From Betaproteobacteria bacterium (GTDB taxonomy: Bacteria; Pseudomonadota; Gammaproteobacteria; Burkholderiales; SG8-39), in NCBI GenBank assembly GCA_016713125.1, contig JADJPT010000007.1, forward strand, positions 29,198 to 93,197: a stretch of 64,000 nucleotides of DNA, in the 5' to 3' direction. This document shows, in pieces, positions 15,600 through 63,659 of this stretch. A program made the position numbers and the translations under genes. Under the pieces are notes generated by a model, which searched no databases, was not told the DNA's origin, and saw nothing but the letters and a program-made list of their open reading frames with translations. Each line of letters begins with the position of its first letter. Position 1 is the stretch's first letter.

Positions 15600-15630
15600 G
15601 TTGCAATCAGGCCGCAGGCCTTATTGCAAC
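15600..15630. terminator. 14-bp-stem hairpin between the convergent J-domain gene and boxB
   Basis: GTTGCAATCAGGCC-GCA-GGCCTTATTGCAAC (one mismatch). It overlaps the boxB stop codon. No clear U-tract. Confidence 0.4.
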
Positions 15631-18600
15631 TTCACATACTCGTAGTCGACCGGCTGGTTGTTGATCCCGCGCTCCGGCGGGGCGATCCAGGCGGCCATCT
15701 TGCCGGGCTCGGCGACCTTCTGCATCAGGCTGCGCACGTGGGCGCGGTCGGCTTCCGAGGGCACCCATTCGTCCTTGCGCCGCGCGTATTCCTCCTGCGG
15801 GATCTGTTTGCCTTCGGGCGTGACCGGCAGCCCGGACCACACGCCGATGCTGCGGCGGAAATGGATCGAGGGCAGGGACAGCCGGAAATCGTGACCGGCC
15901 TTCTCGATGGCGCGGTTCCAGCGCTTCATGCCGATCGCGCAGTCCTGCAGGTACGACTCGCGCATCACCTCGTTGAGTGCGTTGAGCATCGGCACGTCCT
16001 GCACGCCTTCGGGCGTCTCCAGCTTCATCTGCTGTTCGCGCAGCACATGGTCGGCGTAGGTGGCCTCGTCGGGCCGGCCCTTGAGTCCGTTGGCGAAGTT
16101 GGCGGCCGAGTTCGAGGAGATCTCGGCGCCGAACAGGTCGAGCGACGAGGAACACCAGAAGTTGATGTACTTCTGCAGCAGGGGCAGGTCCACGCCGCCG
16201 GCGCGGCGGATGGCCGCCGTGTCGTCGGTGCCCAGCTCCTTCATGAGTTCCAGCGTGCGCTTGATCACGCGGCCGACGCCCGTCTCGCCGACGAACATGT
16301 GGTGGGCTTCCTCGGTCAGCATGAAGCGGCAGGTGCGCGACAGCGGATCGAACGAGGATTCGGCCAGGCTCTTCAGCTGGTACTTGCCGTCGCGGTCGGT
16401 GAAATAGGTGAAGCAGTACAGCGAAAGCCAGTCGGTGATCGGCTCGTTGAAGGTCGACAGGATGCGCGGCTTGTCGGTGTCGCCCGAATGGCGCGCCAGC
16501 AGCTCCTCGGCCTCCTCGCGCCCGTCGCGGCCGAAGTAGGCGTGCAGCAGGTAGACCATGGCCCACAGGTGGCGGCCTTCCTCGACGTTGATCTGGAACA
16601 GGTTGCGCAGGTCGTAGAGCGAGGGGCAGGTGTGGCCGAGCAGGCGCTGCTGCTCCACCGAGGCCGGCTCGGTGTCGCCCTGCGTGACGATCAGGCGGCG
16701 CAGGGTCGAGCGGTGCTCGCCCGGCACCTGCTGCCAGACCGGCTGGCCCATGACGTCGCCGAAGCCGATGCGGCGGTCCGGCTCGGGGTCGGCGAGGAAG
16801 ATGCCCCAGCGGTAGTCCGGCATCTTGACCGCGCCGTACTGCGCCCAGCCGTCGGCATCCACCGAGACCGCGGTGCGCAGGTAGACGTCGGCGCCCTGGA
16901 AGTCGGTGGGCCCCATGCCCTTCCACCAGTCGAGGAAGTGCGGCTGCCAGTGCTCGAGCGCGCGCTGCAGCGTGCGGTCGTTGGCCAGGTTGACGTTGTT
17001 GGGGATTTTTTCCGAGTAGTTGATCGACATGCCGCTCCGAGCGCGGTCGGGCCAATTGCCCCTGCTCGCCGCCGGGGGGCGCGTCCGCGCGCTCCCATTC
17101 GCCTTGCTTCCGGTTCCGTAGACTTTCAGCGCGCCCTGTTCGCCCACGGCGTTGGGGCGGTTGAACACCCAGTTCTGCCAGGCAGTGAGCCGGCCGAAGA
17201 TGCGCGTCTCCATGGTCTCGCGGCCGGCGAAGCGCAACGAGGCCTCCATGGCGGTCAGCGCGTCCGGCGAGAGGCTGGCGCGCTCCTCGATGGCGAGGCG
17301 GATCTCGTCGTTCCAGTCCAGGTCGTCAGGCGCGAAGGTCACCAGGCCGAGCTTCGCGGCGGCCTCGGCGTGCATTTCCTCGTCGAGGGTGGCGCGCGCC
17401 AGCTGCACGGGCTCGTCCTCGCCGCAGAAGCGCGTCTCCAGGCGCGTGCGCCCGTTGGCCATGGCGTAGGCGCCGAAGTTCAGCGTCGAGAGCGCGACCT
17501 TCGGCGCCTCGTCGACGTCGGGCAGGGCCAGCATGTAGCTGCGGTCGGCGGCCAGCGCCAGCTCGAACAGCGTGCCGGCGAAGCAGGAGCCCTCGTCGAT
17601 CAGCGCGATCATCGAGCGCGAGGCCACATCCATGCGCGAGAAGGTGCGGCGCAGGAAGCCCACGGTCTCGCGCACGAACCAGTGTTCGAGGTTCTGCTCG
17701 ATCGCGCGGTCCACCGCCAGCACGTCGCCGGGCACGCCGCGCGTCTGCAGCACCCAGGTGCCTATCTCGGCCTCGTTGGTGCGCAACAGCAGGATGGCGT
17801 CGTCCAGTTCGCGCGCCATGGCCAGCGGCCACCAGTGCGCGCCCTGCGCGAGCATGGCCGTGGCATCGGTGGGCTGCACGCCGTGCGGGCCGCTCACCGT
17901 GATGGTGGCGGTGCGGCCGTCGCGGTCCAGCGCCACCTGCACGTGCGGGTAGCTGTAGCCGTTCTCGTTGACGGTGCGCGTGAGCGGGGTGAGCGCCACG
18001 CCGGGGCCGCCCGGGCGGTCGGAGAGCCCGGCCAGTTCCAGCGCGCGCGCCTGCACCGATTCGGCGAAGGCCTGCGGTTTGGCGATGTGGTCGACCAGCT
18101 TCCATTCCCTGGCGCGGTCGGCGCGCACGCCCTCCGAGGTGGTGCAGAACACATCGGCCAGGTCGCGGCGCACGCGGCGCTTGTCGGTCAGGCGCGTGAG
18201 GCCGCCGGTGCCCGGCAGCACGCCCAGCAGCGGAACCTCCGGGAGGCTCACGGTGGTCGAGCGGTCGTCGACCATGGCGATCTCGTCGCAGGCCAGCGCC
18301 ATTTCGTAGCCGCCGCCGGCGGTCGCGCCGTTCAGCGCGGCGAGGAACTTGAGCCCGGAGTTGCGGCTGGAATCCTCGATGCCGTTGCGCGTCTCGTTGG
18401 TGAACTTGCAGAAGTTGACCTTCCAGGCGTGCGTGCTCTGGCCCAGCATGTAGATGTTGGCGCCCGAACAGAACATGCGCGACTTGCCCGAGGTCAGCAC
18501 CACGCTCTTCACTTCCGGATGCTCGAAGCGGATGCGGTTCAGCGCATCGTTGAGCTCGATGTCCACGCCCAGGTCGTACGAGTTGAGCTTGAGCTTGTAG

Positions 18601-18713
18601 GTGGGGAACAGGCCCTTGTCCTCCTGGATGTCCAGGGTCAGCGTGGCCACCGGGCCGTCGCAGGAGAGCTTCCAGTGGTTGTAATGCGCGGGCTGGGTGT
18701 CGAAGGTGATCAT
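15621..18713 (-). CDS. boxC-boxB: single continuous ORF: BoxC (2,3-epoxybenzoyl-CoA dihydrolase / benzoyl-CoA-dihydrodiol lyase, ~18713-17100) joined in frame to BoxB (benzoyl-CoA 2,3-epoxidase oxygenase subunit, 17030-15621)
   Basis: ATG at 18711-18713 (MITFDTQPAHYNHWKL...). BoxC-type sequence runs to ...ALKVYGTGSKA, followed by a 23-codon linker and then MSINYSEKIPNNVNL... (BoxB-type di-iron protein, 469 aa, with its own GGAG upstream). No stop codon separates them. The ORF track shows one ORF, 15621..18944. Confidence 0.75.
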   Translation of the reverse strand: MITFDTQPAHYNHWKLSCDGPVATLTLDIQEDKGLFPTYKLKLNSYDLGVDIELNDALNRIRFEHPEVKSVVLTSGKSRMFCSGANIYMLGQSTHAWKVNFCKFTNETRNGIEDSSRNSGLKFLAALNGATAGGGYEMALACDEIAMVDDRSTTVSLPEVPLLGVLPGTGGLTRLTDKRRVRRDLADVFCTTSEGVRADRAREWKLVDHIAKPQAFAESVQARALELAGLSDRPGGPGVALTPLTRTVNENGYSYPHVQVALDRDGRTATITVSGPHGVQPTDATAMLAQGAHWWPLAMARELDDAILLLRTNEAEIGTWVLQTRGVPGDVLAVDRAIEQNLEHWFVRETVGFLRRTFSRMDVASRSMIALIDEGSCFAGTLFELALAADRSYMLALPDVDEAPKVALSTLNFGAYAMANGRTRLETRFCGEDEPVQLARATLDEEMHAEAAAKLGLVTFAPDDLDWNDEIRLAIEERASLSPDALTAMEASLRFAGRETMETRIFGRLTAWQNWVFNRPNAVGEQGALKVYGTGSKANGSARTRPPAASRGNWPDRARSGMSINYSEKIPNNVNLANDRTLQRALEHWQPHFLDWWKGMGPTDFQGADVYLRTAVSVDADGWAQYGAVKMPDYRWGIFLADPEPDRRIGFGDVMGQPVWQQVPGEHRSTLRRLIVTQGDTEPASVEQQRLLGHTCPSLYDLRNLFQINVEEGRHLWAMVYLLHAYFGRDGREEAEELLARHSGDTDKPRILSTFNEPITDWLSLYCFTYFTDRDGKYQLKSLAESSFDPLSRTCRFMLTEEAHHMFVGETGVGRVIKRTLELMKELGTDDTAAIRRAGGVDLPLLQKYINFWCSSSLDLFGAEISSNSAANFANGLKGRPDEATYADHVLREQQMKLETPEGVQDVPMLNALNEVMRESYLQDCAIGMKRWNRAIEKAGHDFRLSLPSIHFRRSIGVWSGLPVTPEGKQIPQEEYARRKDEWVPSEADRAHVRSLMQKVAEPGKMAAWIAPPERGINNQPVDYEYVKLQ

Positions 18714-54982: not shown

Positions 54983-55703
54983 CGAATCGAGCGCCGACCT
55001 GCTGATCGATGCGCGCGGCCTGCACACCTACTACGGCGCCAGCCACATCCTGCACGGCGTCGATTTCAGCATCCGGCGCGGCGAGGCGGTGGGCCTGATG
55101 GGCCGCAACGGCATGGGCAAGAGCACGCTGCTGAAGACCATGCTCGGCCTGGTGCGCGCGCGCTCCGGCAGCGTGCACGTGAAGGGCGAGGACGCGACCC
55201 GTGCCGCGCCGCACCGCATCGCCCGCGCCGGCATCGCCTACGTGCCCGAGGGGCGCGGCATCTTCCCGAACCTGTCGGTGCGCGAGAACCTGGTGATGGC
55301 CGCGCGCGCCGGCGTCGACGGCCGTCGCGAGTGGACCTACGAGCGCGTGCTGCAGACATTCCCGCGCCTGGGCGAGCGCATCGGCCACGGCGGCGGCCAG
55401 CTGTCCGGCGGCGAGCAGCAGATGCTGACCATCGGCCGCGCGCTGATGACCAATCCGGACCTGCTGATCCTCGACGAGGCGACCGAAGGCCTGGCGCCGC
55501 TGATCGCACGCGAGATCATGCGCATCGTTTCGCTGGTCAAGGAATCGGGCATTGCCACGGTCATCGTCGACAAGAACTTCGGTGCCGTGAATGCGATCAC
55601 CGACCGCAACGTGATCCTGGTCAAGGGCGAGGTCGTCCACGAAGGCGCCGCCGAGGACTTGCGCGGCCGACCCGAAGTGCACCTGCGCCACCTGGGTGTC
55701 TGA
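54975..55703 (+). CDS. ABC transporter ATP-binding protein (LivF-like)
   Basis: 242 aa. GRNGMGKSTLLK, LSGGEQQML, LLILDEATEGLAP. Confidence 0.85.
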   Translation: MHSESSADLLIDARGLHTYYGASHILHGVDFSIRRGEAVGLMGRNGMGKSTLLKTMLGLVRARSGSVHVKGEDATRAAPHRIARAGIAYVPEGRGIFPNLSVRENLVMAARAGVDGRREWTYERVLQTFPRLGERIGHGGGQLSGGEQQMLTIGRALMTNPDLLILDEATEGLAPLIAREIMRIVSLVKESGIATVIVDKNFGAVNAITDRNVILVKGEVVHEGAAEDLRGRPEVHLRHLGV

Positions 55704-55731
55704 GGGCGCGGTGTCCGGCGCATCCGCCGCG

Positions 55732-56390
55732 ATGCTGGAGGTGCGCGGCCTGGCCAAGTCCTTTGGCGCGCGCCGCCTGTTTGCCAACGTCGATCTGCGG
55801 CTCTCGGCCGGCGACTACCTGGCGGTGGTCGGCGATTCCGGCGTGGGCAAGTCGACCTTCCTGAACGCCATCGCCGGGCTGGAGCCCGTCGATGGCGGCG
55901 CATCGTCTTCGACGGCGCGCAGGTCACCGCGCTGGACGACGACGCGCTCACCCTGCTGAGGCGCGAGAAGTTCGGCTTCGTCTTTCAGGCTTTCCATGTT
56001 CTGCCGCACCTCTCGGTGCTGCAGAACGTCGGCCTGCCGCTGCTGCTGCGCGGCGTCGCGCAGGCCGAGGTCGAACAGCGTGCCGCGGCACGCCTGGCCG
56101 GCGTGGGGCTGGCCGGGCGCGAACACAGCCTGCCGCGCGAGCTCTCCGGCGGCGAGCTGCAGCGCGTGGCCATCGCGCGCGCCCTGGTCGGCGAGCCGCA
56201 ACTGGTGCTGGCCGATGAACCGACGGGCAACCTCGACCCGGACAATGCACGCCAGGTGCTGGCGCTGCTGCGTGCGCAGGTCAAGGAGCGCGGCGCCGCG
56301 GCCATCCTGGTCACGCACTCGGAAGCGGCGGCCGCCACCGCCGACCGCTGCCTGCGGCTCACCCAGGCCGGGCTGGTGCCTGCGGATTGA
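55732..56390 (+). pseudogene. orphan ABC ATPase (LolD/FtsE-like) without a cognate permease, one frameshift as sequenced
   Basis: MLEVRGLAKSF...[12 protein letters not shown] in frame 1. [15 protein letters not shown]...[15 protein letters not shown]...[10 protein letters not shown] in the -1 frame (break ~55897). Confidence 0.65.
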
Positions 56391-57901
56391 GCGTGGCGGC
56401 ATCCGCGTCCGGTGAGCTTCCGCACGGTGAGCGCGAACCGCGCCGGATCCTCGACAGCGTGCCTGCGCCGATCGCGCTGCTCGATCGGCAAGAGCGCTTT
56501 TGCTTCGTCAATCAGGCTTACGCCGACTCGTTGAGCCTGTCGCGCGCGGATTTCCTCGGCAGGGCGGTTTCCGAACTGGCCAGCGCCGAGCGCTACGCTC
56601 TGATCAAGCCGCACATCGAGCGCGTGCTGGCCGGCGAGGAGGTCGCCTTCACCGCGGAGATCGTCGGCCGGCCGGGGCTGCCCGCGCGCGTGTTCGAAAC
56701 CCGCTACCTGCCGGATCGCGATGAACGCGGTGCGGTGGTCGGCTGGTTCGCCGTGCATCGCGACGTCACCGAGCAGACCTCGCTCGAGCGCAGCCTGCGC
56801 CGACGCAGCCTGGAGCTGGCCACCGTGCTCGACAGCGTTCCGGCCATGGTGATGCGCGCCGACGGCGACGAACGCTTCACCTTCGCCAACCGCATGTTCG
56901 CGCGGGAGATCCTCGGCGTCTCCGCCGCGGACCTCATCGGTAGGCGGATCGCGGAAGTGGTGCCGCCCGAGATCCATGCCGCGATCCGGCCCTATATCGA
57001 ACGCGTGCTGCGCGGCGAGGAGACGGGTTTCGAGCGGCTGGAGCATCGACCCGGTCTGCCGGTCCGCCGCTTCGCCATCCGATACGTGCCGGACCGCGAC
57101 GCCTCCGGCGAGGTGGTCGGCTGGTTCGCCTTCGCCACCGACATCACGCAGGAGCGCCTGATGCAGGAGGCGCTGGAGCAGCGCGTGCGCGCGCGCACCG
57201 CGGAGCTCGAGGCCGCGTACCGCGAGCTGGAGACGTTTTCCTACTCCGTGTCGCACGACCTGAAGACCCCGCTGCGCGCCATCGAAGGCTTCGCCAGCCT
57301 GGTGGGCATGGACGAAGGCAGCACGCTGAGCCAGACCAGCCGGGCGCGCATCGAGCGCATCACCGCCAACGCGCGGCACATGGGGCGGCTGATCGAGGGC
57401 CTGCTCGAGTTCTCGCGCCTTTCGCGCCGCGAGATGCAGCGCAGGCGCATCGACATGCGCGAACTGGCCGAGCGGGTGATCGCCGACTTGCGCGGTGTCA
57501 GCGCTACCGCCTTCGAGTCCGAGATCGGCGAGTTGCCGGCTTGCGAGGGCGACGCCGTGCTGCTGCGCCAGGTGCTGCAGAACCTGGTGTCGAACGCGAT
57601 CAAGTACTCCTCCGAGCGGGCCGCGCCGCGCATCGAGATCGGCGCACGGCGCGGCGAGTCCGGCGTGGTCTGGTTCGTGCGCGACAACGGCGTGGGCTTC
57701 GACATGCGTTACGCCGACAAGCTGTTCGGCGTGTTCGAGCGCCTGCACACGCCGGGCCGCTTCGAAGGCACCGGCATCGGCCTGGCGCTGGCGCGGCGCA
57801 TCGTCGAGCGCCACGGCGGCCGCATCTGGGCCGAAAGCGCGCCGGAGGCGGGTGCGACGTTCTACTTTTCGCTGGGCGCAGGGAGCGCGGACGCGCGATA
57901 G
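56387..57901 (+). CDS. PAS-PAS sensor histidine kinase (cytoplasmic, no adjacent response regulator)
   Basis: TTG start overlapping the upstream stop (TTGA). Two PAS modules. His[18 protein letters not shown]. HATPase [24 protein letters not shown]. Confidence 0.8.
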
Positions 57902-57913
57902 TCCGGCGCTGGC

Positions 57914-57987
57914 GGCGGTCGGGCGGCAGTCGGGCTGCGGTCCGGCTGCAGTCCGGCAATCCGGCAATTGTCTGGCAGAATTGCCGG
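57914..57987. repeat. 11-bp-periodic heptad array (GTCSGGC x4-5) followed by a 9-bp-stem hairpin, upstream of the RLP gene
   Basis: ggcgGTCGGGC ggcaGTCGGGC tgcgGTCCGGC tgcaGTCCGGC aaTCCGGC (57914-57965). Then CCGGCAATT-GTCTGGCAG-AATTGCCGG (57961-57987). Confidence 0.7.
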
Positions 57988-58066
57988 CCTGCGAGCCGGT
58001 GCGACCCCGCTCGACCTCTATCGCCAGACGATCCCCGATCCCCATCACTCGAGCCTGCCTCCCTCC

Positions 58067-59221
58067 ATGACCGAACCCCTGCGCAGCGGCCTGACCGGTC
58101 GGCGTTTCCCCGTCCGCTACCGCGTGCGTGCGGCGACGCCGGAACAGGCGCGCGAAGCCGCCGCCGCGCTGGCGCTGGAGCAGAGCGTGGAAGTGCCGCT
58201 GGACGCGGTGTTCGACGCGGCGGTGCGCGAGCACATCGTCGGACAGGTGCTCGACGTGCAGCCGGACGGCGAGGGCGCGTTCGAGGTGCGCATCGCGCTG
58301 GCCGTCGACACTCTCGGCGACGACGTCGCGCAAACCCTGAACATGCTGTTCGGCAACAGCTCGCTGCTCGATGCGGTCGAGCTGCTCGGCGCCGAGTTGC
58401 CGGATTCCGTGCTGCGCGCCTGCGGCGGGCCGCGCTTCGGCATCGAGGGCCTGCGCAGGCTGTGCGGCGTGCAGGGACGGCCGCTGACCTGCGCGGCGCT
58501 CAAGCCGCAGGGGCTGCCGCCCGAAGACCTGGCGCGCCTGTGCCATGTGTTCGCCGCCGGCGGTGTCGACATCATCAAGGACGACCATGGCATCGCCGAC
58601 CAGTCGTACTCGCCTTTCCTGGCGCGCGTGCGGGCCTGCCAGCGCGCCATCCGGCAGGCCGCGGCGGAAACCGGGCGTGCGGCGCTGTACGCGCCCAGCC
58701 TGGTGGGATCACCCAGGGCGCTCCGTGAACAGGCGCGCATCCTGCAGGACGAAGGCGTGGGTGCGGCGCTGGTGGCACCGGCGCTGGTCGGCATGCCGGT
58801 GTTCCACGAACTGGTGGCCGAGCACCTGCGCGTACCGGTGCTCGCGCATCCGGCCTATGCCGGCGCCGCGCGCGTCGCGCCGCCGTTCCTGCTCGGCAGG
58901 CTGTTCCGGCTGCTGGGCGCCGACGCGGTGATCTACCCGCATTTCGGCGGCCGCTTCGCGTACTCCGAGGCCGTCTGCAAGGCCATCGCCGCGCAGGCGC
59001 GCGAAACCTGGCCGGGAGTGCGCGGCAGCCTGCCGGTGCCGGCGGGCGGCATGCACGTGGGGCGCGTGCCCGAACTGGTCGGGTTCTACGGCATGGACGC
59101 CATGCTGCTGATCGGCGGCTCGCTGCTGCGCGCCGGCGCCGACCTGCCGCAGCGCACGCGCGAGTTCGTGCAGGCGGTGGCCGCCGCGGCCGAAACGCAG
59201 GCGAAGCGGGCGGCGGCATGA
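58067..59221 (+). CDS. RuBisCO-like protein (form IV RLP)
   Basis: 384 aa. RuBisCO large-subunit barrel motifs in RLP form: [39 protein letters not shown]. Confidence 0.8.
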
Positions 59222-59670
59222 AGACCAAGGCCGTGCGTCCCTTCTCGGGCGATTTCCGCTGGCAGGACGTCGAACTGCTCCGCTACAAGGACGCGGGCGC
59301 CGCACCGTTCAAGGACGTCACGCGCCAGGTGCTGTTCGAGGACCCGGCCATCGCCGCGCAGCTGCGTTACTTCGAAGTCAGTCCCGGCGGCTACTCGACG
59401 CTCGAGCGCCACCAGCACGCGCACGCGGTGCTGATCCTGCGCGGCCGCGGTCGCGTTCTGGTGGGCGAGGAGGTGCTGTCGGTGGAGACCAACGACCTGG
59501 TCAGCATCCCCGGCATGTGCTGGCACCAGTTCCGCCCCGCGGCGGGCGAGCCTCTGGGGTTCCTGTGCATGGTGAATGCCGAGCGCGACAAGCCGCAATT
59601 GCCGGGTGAGGCCGACCTGGCCGGGTTGCGGCGCGATCCGCGCATCGCGGCTTTTCTCGACGGCCAGTGA
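59218..59670 (+). CDS. cupin-domain protein translationally coupled to the RLP
   Basis: ATGA overlap with the RLP stop. 150 aa. Cupin motifs LERHQHAHAVLILRGRG and VSIPGMCWHQF. Confidence 0.75.
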   Translation: MKTKAVRPFSGDFRWQDVELLRYKDAGAAPFKDVTRQVLFEDPAIAAQLRYFEVSPGGYSTLERHQHAHAVLILRGRGRVLVGEEVLSVETNDLVSIPGMCWHQFRPAAGEPLGFLCMVNAERDKPQLPGEADLAGLRRDPRIAAFLDGQ

Positions 59671-59697
59671 TCGGGAGCCCGGGGCTTCGCCTGAAAG

Positions 59698-59770
59698 TCG
59701 AACTTTACTTTCTCGAACTCCGCTCCTGGAGCGGAGTTCAGGGAAGTTGGCTTGCCGGATCAGGCAAGCC
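59698..59770. repeat. REP-like extragenic palindromic element, copy 2, plus a second hairpin
   Basis: TCGAACTTT / TTTCTCGAACT direct repeats. A 25-nt perfect palindrome GAACTCCGCTCC-T-GGAGCGGAGTTC (59715-59739) shares a 16-nt core with 976-991. GGCTTGCC-GGATCA-GGCAAGCC (59749-59770) lies 18 nt past the downstream gene's stop. Confidence 0.6.
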
Positions 59771-59787
59771 ATACGGTGTGAAGCGCT

Positions 59788-60597
59788 TCAGCCCCCGCCC
59801 GGATACCAGGCCGCCGCGCGCTTCTCCCTGAACGAGGCCAGGCCCTCGGCGGCCTCTGCGGACTGACGCTTCTGCGCATGCTGCAGCACCAGGCGCTCGA
59901 AGGCGGCCTCGCCCGCTTCGCCGGCGAAACCGCCCCAGGCGAACTCGAGTGCGAGCTGCTTGGTCTGCGCGTTGGCCTCGGGCGCGTTCTGCAGCAGCGC
60001 CCCGACCACGCGCGCACCGGCGTCTTCGAGCTCCGCGGCAGGCACCACTTCATGCACCAGGCCGATGCGTCGCGCCTCGGCGGCGTCGAAGCGCTCGCCG
60101 GTCTGCGCATAGCGGCGCACCTGGCGCGCACCGATGGCGTCGGCCAGCTGCGGCAGGATGATGCCGGCCATCAGGCCCCAGCGGGTCTCGGCGATCGAGA
60201 ACTGGGCGTCTTCGGCGGCGATCACCACGTCGCAGGCCGCGGCGATGCCGGTGCCGCCGCCGAAGCAGCCGCCCTGCACCAGGGCCACGGTGGGCAGGGG
60301 CAGGGTGTTCAGCCTGCGCACCGCGAGCGCGGTGATGCGCGAGGCGTGCAGGTTCTCTTCGGCGGTGCCGCCGGCCACCGCGTTCAGCCAGCGCAGGTCG
60401 GCGCCGGCCTGGAAGTGGCGGCCGCGGCCGCGCAGCACCACCACGCGCAGGCCGGGCTCGCCGCCCAGCGCGTCCATCGCGGCGAGCAGGCCTTCGATGG
60501 TTTCGGCGTTGTAGGCGTTGTTCACTTCGGGGCGGTTCAGCGTGACATCGGCCACGCCGCGCGCATCCATGCTCCACAGCACGGCGGGTTCGCTCAT
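59788..60597 (-). CDS. enoyl-CoA hydratase (methylglutaconyl-CoA hydratase-like crotonase)
   Basis: ATG at 60597 (MSEPAVLWSMDARGVADVTLNRPEVNNAY...FQAGADL...VQGGCFGGGTGIAAACD). 269 aa. Confidence 0.75.
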   Translation of the reverse strand: MSEPAVLWSMDARGVADVTLNRPEVNNAYNAETIEGLLAAMDALGGEPGLRVVVLRGRGRHFQAGADLRWLNAVAGGTAEENLHASRITALAVRRLNTLPLPTVALVQGGCFGGGTGIAAACDVVIAAEDAQFSIAETRWGLMAGIILPQLADAIGARQVRRYAQTGERFDAAEARRIGLVHEVVPAAELEDAGARVVGALLQNAPEANAQTKQLALEFAWGGFAGEAGEAAFERLVLQHAQKRQSAEAAEGLASFREKRAAAWYPGGG

Positions 60598-60626: not shown

Positions 60627-61922
60627 TCAGCGCTTGAAAAGCCTGCGCGCCGGGAAGGGCTGGGCCTGCGAACCCAGCGCCTCCTCGATGCGCAGGCCCT
60701 CGTTCCATTTCGCCATGCGTTCGGAGCGCGAGAAGCTGCCGACCTTGAGCTCCGGCACGCCCCAGCCAACCGCCAGGTGCACGATGCTGACGTCCTCGGA
60801 TTCGCCCGAGCGCGCCGAGACGATGGCGCCGTAGCCGGCCTGGCGCGCGGCCTCGACCGCGGCCCGGGTTTCGCTCACCGTGCCGATCTGGTTGGGCTTG
60901 ATCAGCACCGTGTTGCAGGCGCCGGCCGCGGCGGCCCGCGCGATGCGCTTCGCGTCGGTGCAGAAGTAGTCGTCGCCCACCACCTGGATGCGCGCACGCA
61001 CGCGCTGCGTGAAGGCGCGCCTGGCTTCGTGGTCGTCCTCGGCGAACGGGTCCTCGATCGAGACGATGGGATAGGCGTCCACCCAGCGCTCGAGCATGGC
61101 GCCGAACTGCCCGGCCGTGAGCGTGCGGTTCTCCAGCGCCAGCGCGTAGCGGTCCGAGCCGGGCTGGCGCAGTTGCGTGGCGGCGATGTCCAGCGCGATG
61201 GCCACGTCGGCGCCCGGCGCGAAACCCGCGTCCTCGATCGAGTGCACCAGTTCGGCCAGGCCTTCCTCGTTGGACTTGAACGAGGGCCAGTAGCCGCCTT
61301 CGTCGGCCACGCCCTGCAGCTGGCCCTTCTTCGCCAGGCGCGCGCCGGCGGCGTAGTACACCTCGGCGGTCCATTCCAGCGCTTCGGCGAAGCTGCCTGC
61401 ACCGGGGCACACGACCAGGTAGTCCTGCAGGTCGACGCGACCTCGCGCGTGTGCGCCGCCGCCATAGATCTGGATTTCGGGTACCGGCAGCGCGACGCGG
61501 CGCTCGCCGGCCAGGTGCTTCCACAACGGCACGCCGGCCGAGGCGGCGGCGGCGTGCAGGCAGGCCAGCGACACGGCGACGATGGCGTTGCCGCCCAGGC
61601 GCGACTTGTCCGGCGTGCCGTCGAGTTCCACCAGCGCCGCGTCCAGCGTCGACTGCGCCGCGCCATCCATGCCGCGCAGGCGCGCGGCGATGGCACCGTT
61701 CACGGCCTCGACCGCGCGCCCGACGTCCATGCCGCGCAGCGGCGTGCCGCCGTCGCGCAGATCGCGCGCCTCTCCGGCGCAGGTGGAGGCGCCGGCAGGC
61801 GCGATGGCGCTGCCCATCGCGCCATCCTCCCGCACCACTTCGGCCTCGACGGTGGGGCGGCCGCGCGAATCCCAGACGCGGCGGCCGCGCAGCGTGCGTA
61901 TTGCCGAGCCGGTTGCGTTCAT
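60627..61922 (-). CDS. divergent enolase-family paralogue
   Basis: ATG at 61922, overlapping the upstream stop (ATGA). 431 aa. Enolase metal/catalytic pattern retained (ADEGGYWP, ALDIAAT, SIEDPF, VGDDY, IKPNQIGT, ELKVGSFSRSERMAKWNE). Signature deviations: AGASTC for SGASTG and SARSGESED for SHRSGETED. Confidence 0.7.
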   Translation of the reverse strand: MNATGSAIRTLRGRRVWDSRGRPTVEAEVVREDGAMGSAIAPAGASTCAGEARDLRDGGTPLRGMDVGRAVEAVNGAIAARLRGMDGAAQSTLDAALVELDGTPDKSRLGGNAIVAVSLACLHAAAASAGVPLWKHLAGERRVALPVPEIQIYGGGAHARGRVDLQDYLVVCPGAGSFAEALEWTAEVYYAAGARLAKKGQLQGVADEGGYWPSFKSNEEGLAELVHSIEDAGFAPGADVAIALDIAATQLRQPGSDRYALALENRTLTAGQFGAMLERWVDAYPIVSIEDPFAEDDHEARRAFTQRVRARIQVVGDDYFCTDAKRIARAAAAGACNTVLIKPNQIGTVSETRAAVEAARQAGYGAIVSARSGESEDVSIVHLAVGWGVPELKVGSFSRSERMAKWNEGLRIEEALGSQAQPFPARRLFKR

Positions 61923-63014
61923 GTCCGCAGTTCCCTGTTCCAGGTGGTGCGCACCTCGGCCAGCGTGGCGGCCGGCGAGCGCAGCAGCGCGATCGCCGCG
62001 CGACGCCGTGTTGCGCGCCGCCTCGGTGGTGAGGTATTCGACCGGCGACTTGCCGTCGACGCGCGCCAGCAGCAGGCCGGGCAGCAGGGCGGCGGCGCGC
62101 GACTCCAGCGCCGCGCGCGGCTCCCAGTCCACGCCGGCCAGGTAGCGTTGCGTCAGCGCCTCGTAGGCGGCCAGGAAGCCCGGCGTCGCGGCCGGCGTCC
62201 ACAGGCACTTGAGCAACAGGTGGTTCAGGCAGAAGGCGAGATCGAAAGCCGGATCGCCGTACCAGGCACATTCGGCGTCGAGGAACACCGGCGCGTCGCC
62301 TTCGGGTGAGCGGCGGATCAGGATGTTTTTCGGGCTTACGTCGCCGTGCACCAGGGTGCGGCGGTTCGCGGCGGTGGTGTCGGTCAGCGCCTGCAGGCGG
62401 GCGGCCAGTTCCGGATGCGCGCGGCCGGTGGCCAGCAGATAGGGCTCCAGGCGGATGGCGTGGAAGCCGGCGTCGGTGGCGAAGCGCGCGGCGATCGCCG
62501 CGTCGCCCGCGGTGCGCGCGTGGATCCTCGCCAGCGCCTCGCCCACCGCGGCGGCGAAGGCCGCGTCGGCGCGCCCGGCGGCGAGTTCGGCTTTCCACAG
62601 CGGGTAGGCCGAGGGGTCCAGGTACTCCATGGCGAAGACGCCGGCCTCGTCCGCGGCCAGCACGCGCGGCACGCCACCGGGCAGCAGCACGGCCACGGTC
62701 TCCAGCCAGTCGCGCTCGTAGCGGTTGCGCTCCACCGGCGCTTCCCACAGCTGGGCCACGCGCAGGCGCGGCAGCGCGCGCTTCACGCACAGGCTGCCGG
62801 AGGCGAGGTCGACCTTCCAGATGTCCGAGGACACGCCGCCGGCCAGCGGCGCGGCGTGCGGCTGCTCCTGCGCGCCGACCAGACCGGCCGCGCGCAGGAA
62901 GGCGAGGATGGGGGCGAAGTCAGGCGCGGCAGGCGCGGCAGGCGCGGCGGCAGGCGCCGCGGGCGCAACAGGTGCGGCAGGCGCAGGCTGCGCCGGCCCC
63001 GGGGCGATGCTCAC
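61919..63014 (-). pseudogene. APH-fold small-molecule kinase (MtnK/choline-kinase-like) with an Ala/Pro-rich N-terminus, one frameshift as sequenced
   Basis: GTG at 63014 overlaps the pdxH stop (GTGA). GGVSSDIWKV, HGDVSPKNIL, DAECAWYGDPAFDLAF. The break at ~62005 restores ...AAIALLRSPAATLAEVRTTWNRELRT-TGA. Confidence 0.65.
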
Positions 63015-63659
63015 GGCGACAGGCGTTCGATCGTCCAGCCCTGCGTACCGCGCACGTAGCGCAGGCGGTCGTGCAGGCGGTTGGGCCGGCCCTGCCAGAA
63101 CTCCAGCGCCGTGGGGTGCAGACGGTAGCCGCCCCAGTGCGCAGGGCGCGGCGGGTTGTCGCCGTGGCGCTGTTTCGCCGACTCGAGCGCATCCTCGAGC
63201 ACCTTGCGTCCGGCCACCGGGCGGCTCTGCGCCGATGCCCAGGCCGAATGCCGGCTGCCCAGCGGGCGCACGGCGAAGTACCTCGTCGGACTCGCTGGCC
63301 GCGACTTTCTCCACGCGGCCCTCGACGCGCACCTGGCGCTCGAGTTCTACCCAGAAGAACACCAGGCAGGCCTGCGGATTGGCCGCCAGCTGCACACCCT
63401 TGGCGCTCTGGTAGTTGGTGTAGAACACGAAGCCCTCCGCGTCGAGCTCCTTGAGCAGGACGATGCGCGCGTCCGGCCGGCCGTCCGCGGTCACGGTCGC
63501 CAGGGTCATGGCGTTCGACATCGGCAACTGGTGCGCGAGCGAATCGGCCATCCAGCGCTCGAACAGCAGCAGCGGGTCTGCGGGGGCGTCGGCTTCGGCG
63601 AGTCCGGCGCGCATGTATTCCTGGCGCACCGCGGCCAGGTCGAGTTTGGCTGTGCTCAT
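63011..63659 (-). pseudogene. pdxH: pyridoxamine 5'-phosphate oxidase, one frameshift as sequenced
   Basis: MSTAKLDLAAVRQEY...MTLATVTADGRPDARIVLLKELDAEGFVFYTNYQSAKG... then (break ~63281) [19 protein letters not shown]...[27 protein letters not shown]... Confidence 0.8.

Follow-up and report, generated by a model that had tools for sequence, protein, structure and literature searches.

Methylthioadenosine (MTA) is a by-product of polyamine, acyl-homoserine-lactone and some radical-SAM reactions. In the characterised MTA-isoprenoid shunt, MtnP converts MTA to 5-methylthioribose-1-phosphate (MTR-1-P) and MtnA converts MTR-1-P to 5-methylthioribulose-1-phosphate (MTRu-1-P); a RuBisCO-like protein (RLP) turns MTRu-1-P into a 3:1 mixture of 1-methylthioxylulose-5-phosphate (MTXu-5-P) and 1-methylthioribulose-5-phosphate (MTRu-5-P), and a cupin transfers the methylthio group to glutathione, giving 1-deoxyxylulose-5-phosphate (DXP). 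Methanethiol is released and then recaptured into methionine by O-acetylhomoserine sulfhydrylase (PMC5893883, PMC4958253, PMC6302742). This methionine- and sulfur-salvage route was established first in Rhodospirillum rubrum and later confirmed in Rhodopseudomonas palustris. Knockouts, metabolite tracing with labelled MTA and in vitro assays demonstrated the functions of RLP and cupin in both species, and the pair has been noted in other genera "in a similar gene organization" (PMC4958253, PMC5893883). In this study, we analysed a 64-kb stretch of DNA (the window) from contig JADJPT010000007.1 of a Betaproteobacteria bacterium, in which an RLP gene overlaps a cupin gene. The sequence data argue that these genes are the known enzyme pair of the shunt, a DeepYkr-clade RLP isomerase and a cupin methylsulfurylase, a reading to which we give a probability of about 0.9. 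An earlier note on this DNA, made from the letters alone, had already pointed to the shunt while asking whether the RLP might have a new function; clade, residues and cupin orthology decide for the known shunt. The note had also held the R. rubrum pair to be the only characterised one, which is not the case, as in vivo and in vitro work has also validated RPA2169/RPA2170 of R. palustris (PMC5893883). Publications already cover the enzymes, the way they are paired and their presence beyond R. rubrum, and betaproteobacterial genomes carrying the pair are already public; only another host lineage is new.

The R. rubrum pair consists of Rru_A1998, a DeepYkr RLP with MTRu-1-P 1,3-isomerase activity, and Rru_A2000, a cupin of known structure (3JZV). 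As in the window, the RLP is of this clade and the two genes are linked on the same strand; Rru_A2000 also has the same metal-ligand His residues and conserved Cys as the window cupin. By locus tags, Rru_A1999 lies between the R. rubrum genes, whereas the window genes overlap by 4 bp. R. rubrum is a phototrophic alphaproteobacterium, whereas the host of the window is probably a betaproteobacterium; the R. rubrum RLP is placed here by clade, with identities taken from the papers only. The R. palustris pair is, like that of the window, adjacent, overlapping (by 11 bp in CP076679.1) and on the same strand, and its diagnostic RLP residues are identical to those of the window, whereas its flanking genes differ. 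In both organisms the feeder genes are distant by locus tags: mtnP/mtnA are Rru_A0360/0361 in R. rubrum, far from A1998/A2000 (PMC4958253, PMC5893883), and RPA4820/4821 in R. palustris, unlinked to RLP1 and cupin, RPA2169/RPA2170 (PMC5893883). Two other kinds of RLP serve for comparison. MtnW/YkrW, the 2,3-diketo-5-methylthiopentyl-1-phosphate enolase (2OEK, 2ZVI), shares with the window RLP the RuBisCO large-subunit fold, the carbamylatable KDD and a place in MTA salvage, but has E after KDD where the window has H, lacks a cupin partner and carries out another reaction. OiaX of the apiose pathway (NF042437) shares the RuBisCO superfamily and the lack of ribulose-bisphosphate carboxylation, but the window locus has no apiose-pathway neighbours.

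The gene pair was delimited from the listing of open reading frames (ORFs) and by direct reading of the sequence, the overlap by the latter:

58067..59221, + strand: RLP gene, encoding a DeepYkr-clade RuBisCO-like protein of 384 aa
59218..59670, + strand: cupin gene, encoding a protein of 150 aa
59218..59221, + strand: ATGA start/stop overlap joining the RLP and cupin genes

These sizes and the ATGA junction agree with the earlier note. The TGA stop codon of the RLP gene occupies 59219-59221 and is overlapped by the cupin ATG, an arrangement predicted to couple the translation of the two genes. Upstream, the RLP reading frame is open to a TTG at 57968; however, the alignment of 30 homologues opens with the consensus MxRxxVxYRVRA, which places the start at the ATG at 58067. 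The RLP matched Pfam RuBisCO_large (E 5.7e-22) and the cupin matched Cupin_2 (E 3.4e-11), and tblastn comparison with homologues showed each protein to be encoded in one uninterrupted frame.

A search of the PDB with the cupin returned 3JZV ("uncharacterized protein Rru_A2000") with an E-value of 5.7e-61 and 64.8% identity over 145 aa (residues 5-149 of 150), then 3KGZ from R. palustris (E 8.5e-50, 57% identity) and 3IBM from Halorhodospira halophila (E 4e-31); the next matches were unrelated cupins at E 2.5e-05 or worse. In R. rubrum, Rru_A2000 acts as the cupin-type 1-methylthioxylulose-5-phosphate sulfurylase (PMC4958253), and the source organisms of 3KGZ and 3IBM (PMC3293032) are both named in the literature as carriers of the RLP and cupin module (PMC4958253, PMC5893883). 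The window cupin is nearer to Rru_A2000 than is the validated R. palustris cupin, for which our alignment gave 53.6% identity and the published value is 56% (PMC5893883). Residues H65, H67, H69, H103, C117, R123 and D124 are invariant in all 62 orthologues (62/62) as well as in 3JZV and 3KGZ, and every one of them is retained in the window. The four His are the cupin metal ligands. A catalytic role of the cupin Cys was reportedly described by Warlick et al. in 2012. The window protein, a close orthologue of the R. rubrum sulfurylase in the comparison that the earlier note had proposed, is predicted to be a 1-methylthioxylulose-5-phosphate methylsulfurylase that releases the methylthio group in a thiol-dependent manner, giving DXP.

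The RLP was compared with structures in the same way. The best match was 3QFW (351 bits, E 9e-104, residues 9-375), which a sequence search found to be 100% identical to a R. palustris protein; like that of the cupin to 3JZV, this match is far beyond chance. The highest score after it was that of 4NAS (150 bits), followed by the MtnW enolase structures 2OEK (141 bits) and 2ZVI (123 bits), form III 2CWX (111 bits), the Photo RLPs 1YKW (100 bits) and 2QYG (94 bits), and 3NWR (65 bits). One member of the 3QFW family (P0312) is annotated by JGI as "S-methyl-5-thioribulose 1-phosphate isomerase". A second R. palustris RLP, P0283, encoded on the 5.46-Mb chromosome CP076679.1, has a cupin gene overlapping the 3' end of its own gene; it is 64% identical to 3QFW, and neither of the two is equated here with RPA2169. 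P0283 is 51% identical to the window RLP, a value like the 53% that separates the validated R. rubrum and R. palustris RLPs from each other (PMC5893883). In a neighbour-joining tree of the window RLP, 80 genomic relatives and four PDB references, the window protein was nested in the 3QFW clade, which a long branch divides from MtnW and 4NAS; its sister was the protein of a Pseudomonadota metagenome-assembled genome (MAG), inside a group of betaproteobacterial MAGs. The phylogenetic placement suggested in the earlier note therefore groups the protein with the DeepYkr-type RLP of R. palustris.

The residues of the active site gave the same answer. Both motifs remarked on in the earlier note are present, KPQG within ALKPQGL (K146-P147-Q148-G-L) and IKDDH within DIIKDDHG (K171-D-D173-H174). 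Residues N97, K146, P147, Q148, K171, D173 and H174, and likewise H261, P262, R296, F297, A326, G327 and G328, are identical to those of 3QFW; thirteen candidate active-site positions that match 3QFW are conserved in 65-80 of the 80 relatives. Seven differ from MtnW (window/MtnW: N97/K, P147/G, Q148/I, H174/E, R296/S, A326-G327/S-A). By motif mapping, we take K171 and D173 to be the retained carbamylated Lys and first metal-binding Asp of RuBisCO; RuBisCO K175 and His294 are presumably kept as well, Lys177 being replaced by Q148 and Glu204 by H174. The signature K-P-Q-G, K-D-D-H, H-P, G-G-R-F, P-A-G-G is found entire in the window RLP, and is that of the DeepYkr clade, not of MtnW or apiose-type proteins. 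On these grounds the RLP is predicted to be a 5-methylthioribulose-1-phosphate 1,3-isomerase, converting MTRu-1-P to MTXu-5-P together with some MTRu-5-P.

We then looked at how the pair is distributed. One genome per GTDB species was scanned and at least 552 species had an RLP relative, the best of them 75% identical to the window RLP; neighbourhoods were counted at the loci of the best 80 relatives, 78 of which had room downstream and were informative. The best 80 loci belong to Beta- and Alphaproteobacteria, Eremiobacterota/Vulcanimicrobiota, Acidobacteriota, Chloroflexota, Actinomycetota, Gemmatimonadota, Myxococcota and others, and include one complete betaproteobacterial genome (CP019169.1). 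A cupin orthologue lies directly 3' of the RLP gene on the same strand in 59/78 loci and within 3.5 kb in three more, so that the two are linked in 62/78. Among 57 adjacent pairs, 24 overlap by 4 bp, which makes this the most frequent junction, and 6 by 8 bp, the next most frequent; all four nearest relatives inspected, whose RLPs are 71-76% identical to that of the window, have the 4-bp overlap; these data indicate that translational coupling is the norm of the family. Beyond the cupin no partner emerged: neither the sensor kinase, enoyl-CoA hydratase, APH kinase and enolase genes found near the window pair nor pdxH accompanies the pair in the 80 loci, and clustering of the flanking ORFs (~6 kb around the pair) for a conserved third gene brought out nothing but generic MacB-type ABC components, present in 23 loci at most, with no recurring mtnA, mtnP or mtnK. 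The flanks of the nearest relatives are all different, comprising a type I restriction system, an alpha/beta-hydrolase, a MAPEG protein and an acyl-CoA dehydrogenase. The earlier note had stressed that the window pair stands in a different genomic context; its flanks do differ, but this has no diagnostic value, since flanks vary in essentially every genome and mtnP/mtnA are unlinked in the model organisms.

These observations bear on annotation and on ecology rather than on the enzymes themselves, the understanding of which is unchanged. The window genes can be annotated as MTRu-1-P isomerase and MTXu-5-P methylsulfurylase, where Pfam says only RuBisCO_large and Cupin_2 and NCBIfam names neither; KOfam profiles cover both enzymes, so that KO-based automatic annotation recognises them (PMC10663253). 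The module is far wider than the ~25 species cited in 2018, with at least 552 species-level genomes, mostly soil and freshwater MAGs, and this spread lends support to the published proposal of a contribution of the shunt to methanethiol production in the environment.

Two minor observations concern the loci of relatives. In some of the nearest relatives, a MAPEG-family (membrane glutathione-transferase-like) gene lies 3' of the pair on the same strand, at L081-L083 (11803-12198 in L081), and an alpha/beta-hydrolase gene abuts the cupin stop codon on the same strand in L085 (9616-10521) and L086 (4042-4932). A glutathione-linked neighbour would fit a glutathione-dependent cupin reaction, the association being lineage-specific. 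In addition, 16/78 loci, mainly of Eremiobacterota/Vulcanimicrobiota, have no cupin orthologue within 10 kb of the RLP gene, the DNA at these loci covering up to 10 kb per side and several contigs being short. The cupin-less RLPs of Eremiobacterota/Vulcanimicrobiota MAGs (L017, L020, L021, L024, L037, L042, L043, L045, L056, L063 and L065) are nearly monophyletic, and this subclade retains all diagnostic RLP residues; in these bacteria either the cupin is encoded elsewhere in the genome or the RLP acts without it.

Orthology, active-site conservation and conserved linkage are the reasons for which the shunt steps are assigned to the window RLP and cupin; we infer their enzymatic activities and the presence of feeder enzymes elsewhere in this genome. 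In the proposed pathway, MTA would be converted to MTRu-1-P by enzymes encoded elsewhere in the genome, either MtnP or MtnN plus MtnK, followed by MtnA. The RLP would bind this substrate in a RuBisCO-barrel site with a carbamylated lysine and Mg2+ (K171 and D173, with H174 in place of the RuBisCO Glu) and carry out the 1,3-isomerisation to MTXu-5-P. The cupin, metal-dependent through His65, His67, His69 and His103 and with the invariant Cys117 nearby, would use a thiol, for instance glutathione, to strip off the methylthio group. Of the products, DXP would enter the methylerythritol phosphate (MEP) isoprenoid pathway and methanethiol would be returned to methionine by O-acetylhomoserine sulfhydrylase.

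Several further features around the pair enter into the weighing of this proposal:

56387..57901, + strand: sensor histidine kinase gene (PAS-PAS-HisKA-HATPase by Pfam), directly upstream of the RLP gene
57902..58066, + strand: leader of 165 bp between the sensor-kinase stop and the RLP start (sequence reading)
57961-57987: perfect 9-bp inverted repeat CCGGCAATT-N9-AATTGCCGG in the leader, 80 bp upstream of the RLP start
59707-59747 and 59749-59770, no strand assigned: two stem-loops in the 117 bp that separate the cupin gene from the enoyl-CoA hydratase gene convergent with it
60627-62921, - strand: APH-family kinase domain and divergent enolase paralogue in one frame, ~735-765 aa

A number of points weigh against the assignment to the shunt. 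The window RLP is only ~51-57% identical to the validated RLPs, and the NCBIfam profile search gave no equivalog model for either protein, so that no curated cut-off applies. MtnP, MtnN plus MtnK and MtnA, which would feed the pathway, and the methanethiol-recapturing sulfhydrylase are not encoded in the 64-kb window. Two residues depart from the family: RLP position 292 is His, where 65/80 relatives and 3QFW have Asn and 11/80 have His, and cupin position 107 is Pro, where 60/62 relatives have Ala. We take neither to be a known catalytic residue. The physiological weight of the shunt can also be small, as it is dispensable for growth of R. palustris on MTA (PMC5893883). In one alternative, the MTA assignment would be only approximately right and the RLP and cupin of this lineage would use a related substrate, either 5-deoxyribulose-1-phosphate, derived from 5'-deoxyadenosine and giving DXP directly by the same 1,3-isomerisation, or another thio-sugar phosphate. 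The modest identity to the validated RLPs, the lack of a linked mtnA, mtnP or mtnK in the 80 loci and the 16/78 loci in which an RLP exists with no sulfurylase nearby would all suit such an enzyme. We nevertheless consider it unlikely: the window RLP has a translationally coupled cupin whose sole known role is methylthio removal, all clade-invariant residues are kept in both proteins, the validated organisms too have their mtnA and mtnP genes away from the pair (PMC5893883, PMC4958253), and the literature searched contained no published support for it. In a more elaborate and still more doubtful form, the pair would have reached this betaproteobacterial lineage in a 3.3-kb block with the gene of an orphan cytoplasmic PAS-PAS kinase, and the block would be a sensor-controlled accessory route to DXP or methanethiol from a non-MTA substrate, e.g. 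5-deoxyribulose-1-phosphate. Altered substrate use is neither supported nor contradicted by the evidence here, and the kinase is not a conserved partner of the pair.

Two other explanations fare worse than the shunt enzyme pair. By E-value, the top NCBIfam matches of the RLP were the MtnW models NF007095 (182.7 bits) and TIGR03332 (133.6 bits), as would be expected if the protein belonged to another clade (MtnW/YkrW enolase, Photo-type, or apiose 3-oxo-isoapionate-4-phosphate decarboxylase/transcarboxylase) and the cupin were an unrelated neighbour. However, these models rank first because NCBIfam has no DeepYkr model, and both scores, like those to OiaX NF042437 (88.6 bits, cut-off 700), to the form III model (113 bits, cut-off 497) and to the form II model (47 bits, cut-off 489), fall far below the curated cut-offs, which are 409 for NF007095 and 513.6 for TIGR03332. 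The PDB scores to MtnW and Photo structures are less than half of that to 3QFW, the diagnostic residues N97, Q148, H174, R296 and A326-G327 are unlike those of MtnW, and the cupin is an Rru_A2000 orthologue of the kind linked to this RLP clade in the loci counted above. Scores, residues, cupin orthology and linkage effectively refute the other-clade explanation. It is also very improbable that the APH kinase, joined to the enolase, makes MTR-1-P and that the region is an extended MTA-salvage locus of new arrangement. The earlier note had offered this kinase, ~2.2 kb from the cupin gene, as MtnK-like support for the MTA interpretation, while correctly stating that neither mtnA nor mtnP is in the window, where the ~50 called genes annotated with Pfam all lacked IF-2B, PNP_UDP_1, Cys_Met_Meta_PP and DXP-reductoisomerase domains. 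The likeness to MtnK is slight: the kinase domain scored 54.5 bits against TIGR01767, far below the cut-off of 275, and 20.6 and 32.9 bits against the MtnK structure 2OLC and against 2PYW. The kinase gene runs towards the pair on the opposite strand, with the stem-loops between them, the 80 loci contain neither an APH nor an enolase homologue within 10 kb of the pair, and the PdxH-APH-enolase-ECH set (ECH, enoyl-CoA hydratase) is kept in the same order in a relative without RLP or cupin. APH::enolase fusions of ~765-800 aa, 55-60% identical, form a separate family that is widespread in metagenomes and Burkholderiaceae MAGs. The kinase therefore gives no support to the MTA interpretation.

As regards the enolase part, it exceeds the TIGR01060 cut-off (453 vs 300 bits), and it reads "SARSGESED" where the usual motif is "SHRSGETED". 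Its nearest relatives (78-98% identical) are stand-alone proteins of 427-438 aa, and a syntenic contig encodes a 349-aa kinase and a 427-aa enolase in separate genes that share a 4-bp overlap; the fusion in the window may therefore be an indel artefact.

The rest of the window consists mostly of genes for aromatic-acid catabolism (PcaHG, PcaB, a Rieske oxygenase, HpaB and UbiD), along with acyl-CoA ligases, a Liv-type ABC transporter and three TctC/"Bug" receptors. A metagenomic contig with an enolase 88% identical to that of the window has the genes Rieske-PcaHG-PcaB-Liv ABC-ABC ATPase followed by ECH-enolase-APH-PdxH in the same order, its ABC ATPase and ECH genes lying only 110 bp apart; the sensor kinase, RLP and cupin genes are absent. 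In the window, these three genes form a 3.3-kb block (~56390-59670) that sits between two convergent gene sets. As the block is missing from the syntenic relative, it was either inserted in the window lineage or deleted in the relative, and the RLP-cupin pair is in this lineage a gained or lost accessory module. Around the block (56.39-59.67 kb), a search for flanking direct or inverted repeats yielded only short, chance-level ones, no integrase was found, and its G+C content (0.713) does not deviate from that of the flanks (0.689 and 0.721). Neither the 80 loci nor the nearest relatives have an orthologous sensor kinase adjoining the pair, and the sensor kinase of the window is probably functionally untied to it.

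With respect to expression signals, the palindrome in the leader has no T-run behind it and may serve either as an operator or as a terminator stem for the sensor-kinase gene. No riboswitch, S-adenosylmethionine-type or other, came up in Rfam: the whole window was without a match at the gathering threshold, the stretch 57700-58200 gave nothing meaningful even at E<=1, and a scan of 57700-59900 for sigma-70 consensus promoters was negative. Downstream, the stem-loop region 59707-59770 contains an inverted repeat (I14) with 20-nt arms, 85% complementary and 1 nt apart, and the stem-loops are probably bidirectional terminators that end the RLP-cupin unit.

Elsewhere in the window, a 1030-aa ORF with strong coding signal (15621-18713, - strand) has a crotonase domain (ECH_1) at residues 43-227 only, its remaining ~800 residues being without a Pfam match. 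Three genes near the pair are each divided over two frames, whereas the homologues of each are single proteins. The gene of a LivG-like ABC ATPase is split at ~54390; that of a LolD/MacB-like ABC ATPase (55696-56390) is split at ~55900-55914, the protein having 219 aa in the syntenic relative; and pdxH (63011-63659, - strand), which encodes 216 aa in the same relative, is split at ~63270-63290. These split neighbours, all within 10 kb of the RLP-cupin pair, suggest assembly indel errors or recent pseudogenisation.

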